From Candidatus Hadarchaeum sp. (lineage in GTDB: Archaea > Hadarchaeota > Hadarchaeia > Hadarchaeales > Hadarchaeaceae): 64,000 nucleotides of DNA. The notes beneath the pieces were generated by a model. The model saw only the letters and a program-made list of their open reading frames with translations. It searched no databases and was not told the DNA's origin. Where the stretch lies: NCBI RefSeq assembly GCF_049969415.1, contig NZ_JBMFOX010000003.1:1-64000 (forward strand), read 5' to 3'. The stretch's first letter is position 1. Each line of letters starts with the position of its first letter. The position numbers and the translations under genes were made by a program. Below, piece after piece: positions 26,535-61,032 of this stretch.

Positions 26535-26646
26535 TGGCGGGCCCGGTGGGATTCGAACCCACGACCGATCGGTTAGCTCCCAATCGACCGTTAAGAGCCG
26601 ATTGCTTTTGGCCGGAAACCCGACTGCCAGACTGAGCCACGGGCCC
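26535..26646 (-). tRNA. tRNA-Lys(CTT) with two introns (22/23 and 37/38)
   Basis: Removing 26607-26623 and 26574-26591 gives GGGCCCGTGGCTCAGTCTGGCAGAGCAATCGGCTCTTAACCGATCGGTCGTGGGTTCGAATCCCACCGGGCCCGCCA; BHB motif at both introns. Confidence 0.93.
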
Positions 26647-45090: not shown

Positions 45091-45150
45091 GCCCAGCGGG
45101 ACGGCGGCAAAGCAAACAGATTAATGCCGGTGTTGGGAAATAATTTCGGT

Positions 45151-45287
45151 AGCCCGGTGGGGTAGACCGACTGGGGTCGGGCCCAATGGTCAATCCTGCG
45201 GGCCTTTGGAGCCTGCGACGGCGGAGGGCAATAACCCGCCGAATTCGAACGTCGACGGGTCGACCGAATTTCCGCCCCGGGCTACCA
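45151..45287 (+). tRNA. tRNA-Gln(TTG) with three introns (15/16, 53/54, 59/60)
   Basis: Removing 45166-45186, 45225-45243 and 45250-45270 gives AGCCCGGTGGGGTAGTGGTCAATCCTGCGGGCCTTTGGAGCCTGCGACGGCGGTTCGAATCCGCCCCGGGCTACCA; A1-U72 pair as in archaeal tRNA-Gln. Confidence 0.92.
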
Positions 45288-45387
45288 CGAGAAAGCGATT
45301 TTTCTTTGAGCGGTCATCTTGGCGGGGTAGAAATACTGGAACATTACTCTTTTTTGCTGCCGCGCCATCCTCTAACTCGGGTTGATC

Positions 45388-45813
45388 ATGAAGGGCGAGC
45401 TTCGCTTTGTCGGGGCCGTGGACCGGGTTGAGGGGGAGGAAACGGAGATTGTGATTTATCCCGAATTTTGCCCCGCCCTCAAGGGGATAGAGAACTACTC
45501 CCACCTGATCGTGCTCTACTGGTTCCACCAGCGGGATACACCAGAGGAGAGGCGGGTGCTTCAGGTTATCCCTAAACGGCATCCCGGGGCGCCGCTCGTC
45601 GGTGTCTTTGCCTCCCGAAGCCCGACCCGACCGAACCCGATCGGGATGTGTGTGGTGGAACTCATCAAAGTGGAGGACTGCCGGCTGCGCGTGAAGGGGA
45701 TGGACGCGGCCGAGGGCTCTCCCATCGTGGATATCAAACCCTATCTGCCCCGAGCCGATTCAATCCCCGGGGCCAAGGCTCCGGACTGGATGGCCCACGG
45801 ACCGAGCACCTAG
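45388..45813 (+). CDS. tsaA: tRNA m6t6A37 methyltransferase TrmO/TsaA family
   Basis: GVFASRSPTRPNPIG, PIVDIKPY. Confidence 0.9.
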   Translation: MKGELRFVGAVDRVEGEETEIVIYPEFCPALKGIENYSHLIVLYWFHQRDTPEERRVLQVIPKRHPGAPLVGVFASRSPTRPNPIGMCVVELIKVEDCRLRVKGMDAAEGSPIVDIKPYLPRADSIPGAKAPDWMAHGPST

Positions 45814-47102: not shown

Positions 47103-47235
47103 AGCCCCGTGGGGTAGACCCGCCGCTGGCGGGGCCCATCGGTCAATCCTGGCGGGCACCAGCTGGCCGCAATCTGGACCCGCTGACCCCGGTTCGAAAT
47201 CGACAGCGTCGACGGGAATCCGGGCGGGGCTACCA
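47103..47235 (+). tRNA. tRNA-Gln(CTG) with three introns (15/16, 32/33, 59/60)
   Basis: Removing 47118-47139, 47158-47172 and 47199-47218 gives AGCCCCGTGGGGTAGCGGTCAATCCTGGCGGGCTCTGGACCCGCTGACCCCGGTTCGAATCCGGGCGGGGCTACCA. Confidence 0.92.
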
Positions 47236-51094: not shown

Positions 51095-51169
51095 GGCCAG
51101 GGCCGGGATTTGAACCCGGGACGCAGGCTCCACAGGCCCGAATGTTAACCAAGCTACACCACCCTGGCC
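51095..51169 (-). tRNA. tRNA-His(GTG), intron-less, G-1 encoded
   Basis: G-GCCAGGGTGGTGTAGCTTGGTTAACATTCGGGCCTGTGGAGCCTGCGTCCCGGGTTCAAATCCCGGCCCTGGCC. Confidence 0.95.
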
Positions 51170-56388: not shown

Positions 56389-56558
56389 TGCGGGGGGAGG
56401 GATTTGAACCCTCAACATTCGGATATCAGACCTAGGAGTCTTCAGTTTTGCCCCTTGAGAGCTGTCCCCCAAGGTCCGACACTATTGAGCCAGGTTTTAC
56501 CTGGTCTCCCATTTCAATCCGGTGGCGGCTTTCCACCAGATGGTTGAGTTACCCCCGC
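56389..56558 (-). tRNA. tRNA-Phe(GAA) with four introns (17/17a, 22/23, 30/31, 37/38)
   Basis: Removing 56512-56541, 56484-56505, 56447-56475 and 56425-56439 gives the 74-nt GCGGGGGTAACTCAACCTGGGAGAGTGTCGGACTGAAGATCCGAATGTTGAGGGTTCAAATCCCTCCCCCCGCA with all four stems paired. Confidence 0.9.
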
Positions 56559-56695: not shown

Positions 56696-58042
56696 ATGGC
56701 GATGACCGGCTACCGGGGTGAGGTGCAGAGAATTTTGCGCGCGGCGTCGGTGAAGGTGGGCGACAAGATCAAGGCGGTGAGCCGCGGCCGCACCTATGTC
56801 GGCGTCCTGATGCCCCGCACCGAGCTGGGCGATCCCGATCATCTGGTCCTCAAGCTGGACAACGGCTACAACATCGGGGTGAAGGTCGGCCGGAGCACCA
56901 AGGTGGCCTTGCTCGAGAGCCGGGAACTGCCGAAGCTGGCGGTGCCCAAACCCGCGGTAGTTCCGGACGCGAGCAAGCCTCGGGTAACGATAGTCGGCAC
57001 CGGGGGAACCATTGCAAGTCGGGTCGATTACCGCACCGGAGCGGTCTATCCCGCGTTCACCGCCGAGGACATCTACAACGCGGTTCCGGAGATAGCTGAG
57101 ATTGCCAACGTCAAGGTGGTCCAGGCCTGCAACGTCTTCAGCGAGCACATGATCCCGGAGCTTTGGGCGAAGGTAGCCCGGATTGTGGCCAAGGAGATCA
57201 ACGACGGGGCCACGGGAGTCGTGGTGGCCCATGGCACCGATACCATGGGGTACACCGCCGCCGCGCTGAGCTTCATGCTTCAGGGATTGTTTCGCCCCGT
57301 GGTTCTGGTCGGGTCGCAGAGGTCCTCCGACCGGCCGAGCAGCGACGCCGCCCTGAACCTGATTTCAGCGGTCGCGGTCGCCGCCAAATCGGACATCGCC
57401 GAGGTGACCGTGGTCATGCACGGGTCAACCGAGGATGATCATTGTCTGATCCACCGGGGAACCAAGGTTCGGAAGTGCCACACCAGTCGCCGGGATGCCT
57501 TTCAGAGCATCAATGATATCCCTTTGGGCATGGTCAGAGAGGGCCAGATCGTGATGTTCCGCGATGACTACCGCCGCGCTGGTTCCGCGGGCCGGGTCAG
57601 GGTGCAGGACAGGCTGGAGAAGAGGGTGGCCTTGGTGAAGACTACACCGGGATTGCCCGCAAGTGTCATCAAGGGCATCATCGCTTCTGGCGACCGCGGA
57701 ATTGTCCTTGAGGGCACGGGGCTGGGCCACGTCCCCCAGACCCTGTTTGAGGGCATTGAACTGGCCCAGAGAAGGAAGATCCCAGTGGTGATGACATCGC
57801 AGTGCCTCTGGGGCAGGGTCGACATGAACGTTTACTCCACGGGCCGTGAACTGCTCCAGCTCGGCGTCATTCCTGCGGAGGACATGCTTCCTGAGGTGGC
57901 TTGGGTGAAGCTGATGTGGGTGCTGGGCAGGACTAGAGATCTGGAAAGGGTTGCCAGGTTGATGCGGCAGAACCTGGCCGGGGAGATAACGCCGCGAACC
58001 CGACCCGATGCTTTTCTTAAACCTCTCTTCACGCCCGGATAG
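56696..58042 (+). CDS. gatD: Glu-tRNA(Gln) amidotransferase subunit D
   Basis: KLDNGYNIG, TGGTIASRVDY, HGTDTM, QRSSDRPSSD. Confidence 0.96.
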   Translation: MAMTGYRGEVQRILRAASVKVGDKIKAVSRGRTYVGVLMPRTELGDPDHLVLKLDNGYNIGVKVGRSTKVALLESRELPKLAVPKPAVVPDASKPRVTIVGTGGTIASRVDYRTGAVYPAFTAEDIYNAVPEIAEIANVKVVQACNVFSEHMIPELWAKVARIVAKEINDGATGVVVAHGTDTMGYTAAALSFMLQGLFRPVVLVGSQRSSDRPSSDAALNLISAVAVAAKSDIAEVTVVMHGSTEDDHCLIHRGTKVRKCHTSRRDAFQSINDIPLGMVREGQIVMFRDDYRRAGSAGRVRVQDRLEKRVALVKTTPGLPASVIKGIIASGDRGIVLEGTGLGHVPQTLFEGIELAQRRKIPVVMTSQCLWGRVDMNVYSTGRELLQLGVIPAEDMLPEVAWVKLMWVLGRTRDLERVARLMRQNLAGEITPRTRPDAFLKPLFTPG

Positions 58043-59124: not shown

Positions 59125-61032
59125 ATGGATTTGATGGGAAAAACGGACATCGATTATCGCGGGATAGGGCTGCGCGTGGGCTTTGAGATCCACCAGGAGC
59201 TGGAAACGTCCAAGCTCTTCTGCAGCTGTCCCTCCCGGCTCCGTGACGATGTCCCGCGCCTGCAGGTGAGGCGGAGGTTGCGCCCGACCCAGAGCGAGCT
59301 GGGCGAGGTCGACCGCGCTGCCCTTGCCGAGGCGATCAAGGGCAAGGCCTTCAACTATCAGGTTTACCCCGACACCGTCTGCTTGGTCGAGCTTGATGAG
59401 GAGCCGCCCCACCCGGTGAATGAGGAGGCGCTCGATATCGCGCTCGAGGTAGCGCTCCTGCTTGAAGCCAGCCCTGTCGACGAGGTCCACGTGATGAGGA
59501 AGATCGTCATCGACGGCAGCAACACCTGCGGCTTCCAGCGGACGATGCTTGTGGCCACCGATGGCAGCCTCATGATCGACGGCAGGAAAATCGACATCCC
59601 GACGATATGCTTGGAGGAGGATGCCGCTAGGAAGGTGGGTGAGAACGGCGAGGTGGTGGAATACCGTTTGGACCGGCTTGGAATTCCGCTCATCGAGATT
59701 GCCACCGGACCGGACTTTACTGACCCGGAAAATCCGGCCAAGGCGGCGCTTTACATCGGGCAGTTGCTTCGCGCCACCGGTCGGGTGAAACGTGGTCTGG
59801 GGACCATCCGGCAGGACATCAACATCTCCATCGCCGGTGGTGCCCGCCAGGAGATCAAGGGGGTGCAGGAGCTGGGCCTCATCACCACCGTGATCGAGCG
59901 GGAGGTGCAGCGGCAGCTGGCGCTTCTTGAGATTCGTGAGGAGCTGAAGCGGCGCGGCGCGAGGGGAGCGGAGAAAAGAATAGTCGAGGTCACGGAGTTC
60001 TTCTCGAAAACCGGTTCCAAGCTGATTCAGAGGGCACTGGCGGCGGGAGGTTCGGTGCTGGCGTTGAAGCTGGAGAAGTTCGCCGGTCTCCTCGGCAGGG
60101 AGCTTCAGCCCGGGCGAAGGTTTGGAACCGAGCTGTCTGACCGGGCCAAGACCTACGGCAAGGTCGGTGGAATCTTTCACACTGACGAACTTCCCGGCTA
60201 CGGCATCTCCGCCGAGGAAGTAGCCCAAGTGAGGCAGAAGCTAGGTGCCGGAGAACTGGACGCCGTGGTGCTGGTCGCAGAGCGGAGAGAGAAAGCGGTG
60301 GCAGCTCTCGAGGCGGTAGCGGATCGGGCCAATGAGGCGCTGGCCGGAGTTCCCGAGGAAACGCGTCGGGCTTTGGAAGATGGCAACACCGAGTTCATGC
60401 GTCCCCTGCCCGGGGCCAGTCGCATGTATCCCGAGACGGACATCCCGCCCATCCCGATAACCCGAACCAGGATTAAAAAAATCAGGGGCCAGCTCCCCGA
60501 GCTGCCGGAGAGGACGCGGGGCAGGCTCGTGGAAAAATACCGGCTGAGCCAGAACTTGGCCGAGCGGCTGAGCCTTTCCGAGAACCTGAGCTTGTTTGAG
60601 GAGCTGGTAGCAGAGACAAATGCCGACCCGACCTTGGTGGCGGCAACTCTGGAGGAGACCCTCGTCAGCCTGCGCCGCGAGGGGATCAAAGTCGAGGGGA
60701 TAACCAAGGAGCTGCTGCTGGAGATGTTCCGGTGGGTGGCGGACGGAAAGCTGGCCAAGGAGGCTGTCCCCGAGGTGCTCAGGCTGGCGGCGCAGGGCCT
60801 TGGCGTTCCGGAGGCAGTGGAGAGGCTCGGGCTCTCCCGGCTCAGCCCCGAGGAATTGGAAAGGCTGGTCGCCGCGACCGTCGCCGAGAATCGGAAGCTG
60901 GTTCAGGAGAGAGGGATGAATGCCGTTGACCCGCTCATGGGCCTTCTGATGGCCAAGGTCAGGGGAAGGGCCGACGGAAGATTGGTCCATGAGCTTTTGA
61001 GAAAGGAGATTGAAAATTTCCTCAACACCTGA
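59125..61032 (+). CDS. gatE: Glu-tRNA(Gln) amidotransferase subunit E
   Basis: GFEIHQEL, DEEPPH, IDGSNTCGFQRT, RMYPETD. Confidence 0.96.
   Translation: MDLMGKTDIDYRGIGLRVGFEIHQELETSKLFCSCPSRLRDDVPRLQVRRRLRPTQSELGEVDRAALAEAIKGKAFNYQVYPDTVCLVELDEEPPHPVNEEALDIALEVALLLEASPVDEVHVMRKIVIDGSNTCGFQRTMLVATDGSLMIDGRKIDIPTICLEEDAARKVGENGEVVEYRLDRLGIPLIEIATGPDFTDPENPAKAALYIGQLLRATGRVKRGLGTIRQDINISIAGGARQEIKGVQELGLITTVIEREVQRQLALLEIREELKRRGARGAEKRIVEVTEFFSKTGSKLIQRALAAGGSVLALKLEKFAGLLGRELQPGRRFGTELSDRAKTYGKVGGIFHTDELPGYGISAEEVAQVRQKLGAGELDAVVLVAERREKAVAALEAVADRANEALAGVPEETRRALEDGNTEFMRPLPGASRMYPETDIPPIPITRTRIKKIRGQLPELPERTRGRLVEKYRLSQNLAERLSLSENLSLFEELVAETNADPTLVAATLEETLVSLRREGIKVEGITKELLLEMFRWVADGKLAKEAVPEVLRLAAQGLGVPEAVERLGLSRLSPEELERLVAATVAENRKLVQERGMNAVDPLMGLLMAKVRGRADGRLVHELLRKEIENFLNT

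Follow-up and report, generated by a model that had tools for sequence, protein, structure and literature searches.

The window analysed here, a 64,000-nt stretch of DNA from Candidatus Hadarchaeum sp., carries at positions 45151-45287 of the plus strand a 137-nt tRNA-Gln(UUG) gene in which four exons, coding for a 76-nt spliced tRNA, are separated by three introns. Exon 1 (45151-45165, +) supplies tRNA positions 1-15, namely the 5' strand of the acceptor stem, U8, the 5' strand of the D stem, A14, and G15; it is followed in the D-loop by a 21-nt intron at site 15/16 (45166-45186, +). Exon 2 (45187-45224, +) spans positions 16-53 and comprises the remainder of the D arm, the anticodon arm with UUG, the variable region, and the 5' strand of the T stem. 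The T arm is interrupted twice, by a 19-nt intron at site 53/54 (45225-45243, +) and by a 21-nt intron at site 59/60 (45250-45270, +), between which lies a 6-nt micro-exon, TTCGAA (45244-45249, +), corresponding to T-loop positions 54-59. Exon 4 (45271-45287, +) contributes positions 60-73 (T60, the 3' strands of the T and acceptor stems, and discriminator A) plus an encoded CCA.

An earlier note, made from the letters of this DNA, had proposed a tRNA-Gln(TTG) gene with introns of 21, 19, and 21 nt at 15/16, 53/54, and 59/60, with TTCGAA as a 6-nt exon, with no canonical 37/38 intron, and with an A1-U72 pair. Our analysis recovered exactly this parse, with matching coordinates. There is no 37/38 intron in the gene, the hexamer recurs as the same T-loop, unbroken, in two orthologues (L008 and L009), and the A1-T72 pair is found in this gene and in all 27 tRNA-Gln genes parsed from this and related genomes. 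Upstream of the gene, from -32 to -25 relative to the tRNA start, lies the A/T-rich box GATTAATG (45119-45126, +), whose columns are (nearly) invariant across 8 of the 10 upstream regions aligned from orthologues, with a T-run in its place in the two sequences of genus g5; this box is likely a TATA-like promoter element. Downstream, the T-rich run TTTTTCTTT (45299-45307, +), read from the sequence, starts 12 nt past the CCA and is likely a transcription stop. A gene for a TrmO_N-domain protein, of a tRNA methyltransferase family, is located about 95 nt 3' of the tRNA gene (45382-45813, +).

Standard tRNA finders pass over the unspliced locus. ARAGORN made no call there, its sole call in the window being a tRNA-His, and a search of the locus against Rfam gave no tRNA even at E<=10, just three chance matches to unrelated families; the Rfam tRNAs in the window lie at 51095-51168 and 26538-26646. 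Once the three segments were cut out by their coordinates, ARAGORN called the product tRNA-Gln(ttg) of 76 nt, that is, excision restores a cloverleaf with the identity that had been claimed for it. The three-intron parse scores 127% of the default ARAGORN threshold, which is the top level of the genome and compares with 112-124% for the intron-less tRNAs of the same genome and with 121% and 106% for alternative parses of the locus. In the ARAGORN drawing of this tRNA the anticodon stem has 6 bp and the variable region 3 nt, an apparent anomaly that we dropped after comparison with family f2 and with the Rfam alignment; the equally valid standard register has G26, 5 bp in the anticodon stem, 4 nt in the variable loop, and a U13-U22 mismatch.

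The top score is shared with a paralogue, tRNA-Gln(CUG) (47103-47235, +), which also contains three introns: one of 22 nt at 15/16 (47118-47139), one of 15 nt at 32/33 (47158-47172), and one of 20 nt at 59/60 (47199-47218). In its unspliced form this gene was likewise missed by both ARAGORN and Rfam, and its spliced form reaches 127% of the ARAGORN threshold. Among related genomes, Rfam likewise failed to detect the four-intron gene of L006 and the L012 genes with a single intron, and it scores the intron-less tRNA-Gln(CUG) orthologue of genome G004 at 60.8 bits. Because standard tools miss both Gln genes, Hadarchaeal genomes seem to be without tRNA-Gln unless introns are searched for iteratively.

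Archaeal introns of the bulge-helix-bulge (BHB) type are excised by the endonuclease EndA, which cuts both bulges, and the exons are ligated by RtcB. As the BHB criterion we took two 3-nt bulges on opposite strands around a 4-bp central helix (H), with the cut after the second bulge nucleotide, and we enumerated all position pairs with a 4-bp helix, a 3-nt bulge after each strand, and an inner helix (h') of at least 2 bp. This loose filter yields many candidates in the G+C-rich precursor, among which the three claimed introns stand out. For each of them the enumerator returned the 4-bp helix (GGGT/GCCC, CGGC/GCCG, and TTCG/CGAA, respectively) and the two 3-nt bulges, which bears out the BHB-like hairpin geometry that the note had described. 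The bulges are AG|A and AA|T at 15/16, GG|A and AA|T at 53/54, and AA|C and TT|T at 59/60.

The three motifs differ in their flanking helices. The 53/54 motif, with an h' of 3 bp and an outer helix (h) of 3 bp, has the strict hBHBh' form in the primary transcript. The 59/60 motif has an h' of 5 bp and no outer helix in the primary transcript, and it gains one of 5 bp, the T stem, once intron 2 is computationally removed; it is therefore conditionally strict. The 15/16 motif, with an h' of 5 bp, is of the relaxed HBh' form, and its outer helix is absent in all 26 genes that have this intron. Since the D-loop intron has no outer helix, the enzyme that removes it must tolerate a relaxed motif.

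These differences suggest an order of removal in the T arm. The outer helix of the 53/54 motif, formed by positions 45-47 and 55-57, overlaps the central helix of the 59/60 motif; therefore, the two motifs cannot be fully formed together. After computational removal of intron 2, the minimum free energy (MFE) structure at both 37 and 75 C consists of exactly the T stem, H, the two 3-nt bulges, and h' of the 59/60 motif. Because the primary transcript already has the whole 53/54 motif and the 59/60 motif needs the T stem that forms afterwards, we infer that the 53/54 intron is likely removed first and the 59/60 intron second, in which case the 6-nt exon would never be set free as a separate piece. 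For an enzyme that accepts HBh' motifs, this order would be preferred rather than obligatory. For naked RNA, forming all three motifs at once costs about 29 kcal/mol relative to the MFE at 37 C and about 19 kcal/mol at 75 C, and both the MFE and the centroid structure of the precursor pair the D region otherwise than in the D-loop motif. The folds of the tRNA-Gln(UUG) and tRNA-Gln(CUG) precursors have z-scores of -1.5, with the D-loop motif absent from both MFEs, and we treated these results as uninformative rather than contrary.

We also set the parse against chance in a genome-wide pipeline. Candidates were seeded by a 7-bp acceptor stem with U8, A14, and C61, so that loci deviating from these nucleotides or from a perfect acceptor stem were not seeded; up to four segments of BHB geometry were then removed, and the products were passed through a T-arm filter and through ARAGORN at rising thresholds. 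In the real genome, 10,490 seeds gave 61 that passed the T-arm filter, 995 spliced candidates, and 49 loci, whereas in the reversed genome 10,797 seeds gave 12 past the filter, 33 candidates, and no ARAGORN hit. Two parses produced along the way were rejected. A three-"intron" parse at C14:776-993 is the intact tRNA-Val at C14:922-993, re-derived from an upstream seed with three long "introns," and a three-"intron" tRNA-His(atg) parse of loci L006 and L007, obtained by a non-iterative search, is spurious, since the iterative search reads these loci as four-intron tRNA-Gln genes at 127%. The pipeline can thus mis-parse where a real tRNA exists; therefore, comparative evidence matters.

To obtain such evidence, we searched 41 related genomes at the DNA level, which gave matches in 30, and kept 20 loci; an iterative search with Gln acceptor-motif seeds recovered 27 tRNA-Gln genes (16 UUG and 11 CUG) from 20 genomes. 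Compared with the Hadarchaeum gene, the exons differ at 0 of 76 positions in four genomes of the same genus (G001, G002, G003, and G007) and at 1 of 76 in two genomes of genus g8 (G014 and G021). In contrast, the introns differ at 9-13 of 61 positions in the former and at 17-18 of 61 in the latter, and the 60 nt upstream of the gene differ at 13-36 positions. In the seven genomes compared, which as relatives are not independent, exon versus intron divergence gave Fisher p values between 1e-7 and 5e-4.

The introns vary in sequence within a constant frame. The 15/16 intron is present in 26 of the 27 tRNA-Gln genes, where it measures 15-26 nt and takes 22 distinct sequences; only the CUG gene of G004, which is intron-less, is without it. 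The bulges of this intron are constant, the first being AG|A (AG|G in 4 genes) and the second AA|T or AA|C (AT|T in one gene). Its helices change by whole base pairs: at the second pair of H, 20 genes have G-C and 6 have T-A, with D-stem nucleotide 11 changing in step; h' opens with C-G in 21 genes and with T-A in 5; and at the third position of h', the pair is G-C (10 genes), C-G (11), or A-T (2), with no pair there in the 3 genes that have a 2-bp helix. The T-arm introns are less widespread. The 53/54 intron occurs in 8 of the 16 UUG genes parsed (6 distinct sequences, 17-20 nt) and the 59/60 intron in 8 genes (7 distinct sequences).

According to our parses, the 16 UUG genes have one intron (7 genes), two (2 genes), three (5 genes), or four (2 genes). 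The genes of G020 and G011 contain the 15/16 intron alone, and their T arm is uninterrupted, with a T-loop identical to that predicted for the spliced Hadarchaeum tRNA. Both four-intron genes, L006:1512-1666 (G014) and L007:1512-1665 (G021), belong to genus g8; they carry the 15/16, 53/54, and 59/60 introns and, 5 nt downstream of the first, a second D-loop intron whose central helix cannot be completed until intron 1 has been excised, a dependency of the same kind as that in the T arm. Overall, the comparative data support real introns in a functional gene, since the exons are invariant and the introns vary with compensatory changes and are present or absent among relatives. As a separate observation, the UUG genes of L019:1266-1378 (G037, family f2) and L020 (G028, family f5) combine two introns in the D-loop with an intact T arm; the strict motif filter mis-parsed the L020 gene, which was read by eye and stands outside the 27 parsed genes.

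The genome encodes the enzymes that such a gene would need. A single EndA gene of 179 aa is found at C9:25337-25873, where the profiles PF01974 and PF02778 each have their one match in the genome, and nothing else scored below E 0.1 in a tblastn search of the genome for a second EndA gene. A weaker match at C44:4027-4224 (E 0.49), considered as a potential beta subunit, was rejected, as it reads like a stretch of an unrelated open frame of 335 aa that bears no evident resemblance to EndA. Among 41 Hadarchaeales genomes, PF01974 matches exactly once in 35, twice in 2, and not at all in 4. The RtcB gene is located at C4:14417-15724 (595 bits). As the note had claimed, GatDE is encoded in the window itself: gatD (56795-58003, +; TIGR02153, 584 bits against a cut-off of 324) and gatE (59149-61017, +; TIGR00134, 808 bits against 319.55) both score above the curated cut-offs. 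No GlnRS was found above the cut-off in the genome, the best match to the glnS model having 270 bits against 425.8. UUG and CUG anticodons, encoded GatD and GatE, and no GlnRS found form the combination that marks the GluRS/GatDE route, and A1-U72 is an identity element for GatDE.

By length, collinearity, and catalytic residues, the Hadarchaeum EndA appears to be of the Methanocaldococcus-like alpha4 type represented by M. jannaschii. Its residues 15-179 align to residues 9-171 of M. jannaschii EndA (1a79) with two 1-residue gaps (E 9e-37), and its Tyr, His, and Lys are aligned with the identical Y236, H251, and K282 of ARMAN-2 (Hirata 2012 numbering). The stretch from Tyr to His is 5 residues shorter than in ARMAN-2 and equal in length to that of M. 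jannaschii, and the N-terminal half is without the 9-residue insert of Aeropyrum pernix EndA in a pairwise alignment. With the ARMAN-2 loop positions taken from PMC3488258, pairwise alignments revealed no insertions of the CSL, ASL, or ARMAN-2/NEQ type. With one EndA gene found and that insert missing in the alignment, the enzyme does not match a Thermoproteales-type (alpha-beta)2 EndA with the Crenarchaea-specific loop.

Our results confirm the locus as a genuine interrupted gene of a hot-spring archaeon, with a gene structure known from other archaea. With a probability of roughly 90%, it is the sole tRNA-Gln(UUG) gene found in the genome, with a 137-nt precursor, three BHB introns, splicing by EndA and RtcB, and a product that follows the GatDE route. 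According to this model, which we build from sequence comparisons, the 137-nt precursor with its three BHB introns would be transcribed, and the single EndA would cut within both 3-nt bulges of each motif. RtcB would then join the exons into a 76-nt tRNA with A1-U72 and the encoded CCA, this tRNA would be charged with Glu, and GatDE, encoded 11 kb downstream, would convert the Glu-tRNA to Gln-tRNA.

An intact UUG gene elsewhere, which the note had named as counter-evidence, is absent from the 50 calls of ARAGORN, from the 49 pipeline loci, and from the results of a DNA search. It is very unlikely that this copy is a decaying or silent pseudogene that retains its insertions while UUG is decoded from a gene in the unassembled 5% of the genome. 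The exons are invariant in four other genomes of the same genus while introns and flanks diverge, the intron helices are maintained by compensatory changes, the upstream A/T box is conserved, and the CUG gene is interrupted likewise. An intact copy was found by DNA search in 0 of the four same-genus genomes, each of which has just the UUG gene and its CUG paralogue. Against this, the assembly, in 138 contigs, has a completeness of 95%, and the missing part may hold a second UUG gene; the BHB-competent fold is also thermodynamically unfavoured for naked RNA.

A real gene with other splice boundaries is just as improbable as a pseudogene. One such case is a 19-nt excision in the D arm, at precursor positions 25-43, which still gives tRNA-Gln(ttg) at 121% in an RNA whose G+C richness generates many loose BHB-geometry candidates; yet the three-intron parse scores best (127% versus 121%), its 15/16 intron has an inner helix of 5 bp versus 2 bp in the alternative, and it alone has boundaries, bulges (AG|A and AA|T), and helices that recur in 26 of the 27 genes. 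Finally, that chimeric or mis-joined reads created apparent insertions, as a fragmented metagenome-type assembly with 2% contamination might allow, is hardly credible, since the same four-exon architecture occurs at the same sites in four other genomes of the genus and, expanded by a fourth intron, in two genomes from a different genus, and since the contig is at least 64 kb long with coherent archaeal genes around the locus. The nearby PGK is 90-94% identical to that of Candidatus Hadarchaeum and Hadesarchaea MAGs.

Multi-intron BHB tRNAs are an established class, to which the tRNA-Gln(UUG) gene belongs; less ordinary are the order-wide relaxed D-loop intron, the EndA without known specificity loops, and the four-intron orthologues. 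Our comparisons with known systems draw on the portions of the cited sources that were accessible. A close precedent in architecture comes from Thermoproteales (Sugahara 2007/2008), whose tRNA genes can likewise be split at non-canonical sites by two or three short BHB introns. Reviews give three introns as the maximum in Thermoproteales and name 53/54, 59/60, and 20/21 among the known sites (PMC4033280 and PMC4090602); the list of sites in the accessible sections of these reviews is open-ended ("etc."), and 15/16 is not among the sites named there. However, Thermoproteales belong to the Thermoproteota and have an (alpha-beta)2 EndA with the Crenarchaea-specific loop, whereas the host of the tRNA-Gln(UUG) gene belongs to the Hadarchaeales and has a single 179-aa EndA without that insert. 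Closely spaced introns of which one has to be removed before the next motif forms have been described for tRNAscan-SE 2.0 (PMC8450103).

Heavy disruption of tRNA genes in the same broad lineage was already noted in 2018 for Hadesarchaea (Kaneta et al., PMC5829648, YNP_N21 set), where the tolerance of introns is ascribed to an "L3" loop. The Hadarchaeum EndA shows no insertion relative to M. jannaschii EndA, and a loop-free enzyme, as judged from the alignments, is at odds with this attribution, at least as worded in the accessible part of that paper. In the same source, the M. jannaschii-type EndA is reported to need the outer helix, which is absent from the 15/16 motif, and the strict-motif rule for alpha4 EndA is already questioned for Hadesarchaea (PMC5829648).

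A relaxed D-loop intron outside the TACK group has a precedent in the same paper. Namely, the pre-tRNA-Glu(UUC) of Methanopyrus kandleri, a non-TACK archaeon, likewise has a relaxed HBh' D-loop intron (20b/21) in addition to another intron (PMC5829648). It differs in having two introns, one of them canonical, whereas the Hadarchaeum tRNA-Gln(UUG) has three, none canonical. The EndA of M. kandleri is described as (alpha-beta)2 without a loop, its D-loop intron is removed inefficiently in vitro, and this HBh' intron is poorly removed by enzymes that have no specific loop (PMC5829648). The D-loop intron of Hadarchaeales, by comparison, is fixed in both Gln isoacceptors across an order.

Other lineages show comparable or greater disruption. 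Most tRNAs of the Asgard groups Atabeyarchaeia, Freyarchaeia, and relatives are interrupted (PMC11291895), with up to five intervening sequences reported in one gene (bioRxiv 10.64898/2026.10.13.758758). The Hadarchaeum genes resemble them in having many non-canonical introns, often in the D arm, that standard tools miss, but Asgard archaea form a different phylum and their EndA is described as (alpha-beta)2 with the L1 loop (PMC5829648). The four introns of the g8 genes exceed the "up to three" stated in papers of 2014 and 2021, in the parts of these that were accessible, yet they are no record, because Asgard genes are reported with up to five. Our literature search, whose scope lay outside supplements and the primary Sugahara catalogues, found no paper on archaeal tRNAs with four introns and no paper on Hadesarchaea or Hadarchaeota tRNA introns beyond those cited here. 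Beyond the archaea, the tRNA-Ile(UAU) of Cyanidioschyzon merolae has three BHB introns, in the D stem, the anticodon loop, and the T-loop (PMC3728597). This is, however, a eukaryotic nuclear gene that includes a 37/38 intron, and its ordered removal was shown by RT-PCR, whereas the order for tRNA-Gln(UUG) is our prediction from the motifs.

The inserts L1/CSL, L2/ASL, and L3 have so far been held responsible for broad substrate specificity of EndA. From the sequences, we put forward as a tentative proposal, on which we would not yet bet, that Hadarchaeales may process HBh' D-loop introns with an alpha4 EndA that has none of these three inserts and may tolerate up to four introns and a 6-nt exon. 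If this were true, relaxed BHB recognition would have an additional route, one that either needs no loop or depends on a cofactor, and the 15/16 intron would have been kept in both tRNA-Gln isoacceptors since the origin of the order. An essential tRNA that would depend on the cutting of a relaxed D-loop motif, in a lineage with only an alpha4-like EndA, makes this enzyme and its substrate a clean test of the strict-motif rule. The graded series of one, two, three, and four introns at fixed sites, within one gene family and one order, is convenient for dating intron gain.

Several other tRNA loci of the genome came to light in the same searches. Adjacent, intron-less pairs of tRNA-Ile(GAT) and tRNA-Ala(TGC) lie on two short contigs (C74:2216-2445 and C136:227-381). 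This arrangement is typical of the spacers of bacterial rRNA operons, and the pairs may represent the approximately 2% contamination or collapsed rRNA operons. In the window, the minus-strand tRNA at 26538-26646 is interrupted twice, by a 17-nt intron in the D-loop and by an insertion in the anticodon loop. Excising 18 nt at 37/38 yields a candidate tRNA-Lys(CUU) at 124%, whereas strict 3-4-3 geometry gives a 17-nt excision that leaves an 8-nt loop; therefore, the 3' bulge departs from the regular form and the anticodon is a provisional call. A further tRNA-like locus of 170 nt lies directly upstream of gatD on the minus strand (56389-56558). It has two well-structured D-loop introns, one of 30 nt with an 8-bp inner helix and one of 22 nt with a 6-bp inner helix, as well as an insertion of about 42 nt in the anticodon arm; its best parse is tRNA-Pro(UGG) at 118%, with a third excision that has no good BHB.

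Genome-wide, the pipeline loci amount to 48 (the 49 minus one spurious extension; contigs C1-C31), of which 26 are intron-less and 22 need excision. Among these 22 interrupted loci, 12 are well resolved, at 115% or more of the ARAGORN threshold, and 10 are poorly resolved. The resolved introns lie mostly at linear positions 21-24, in the D-arm region.
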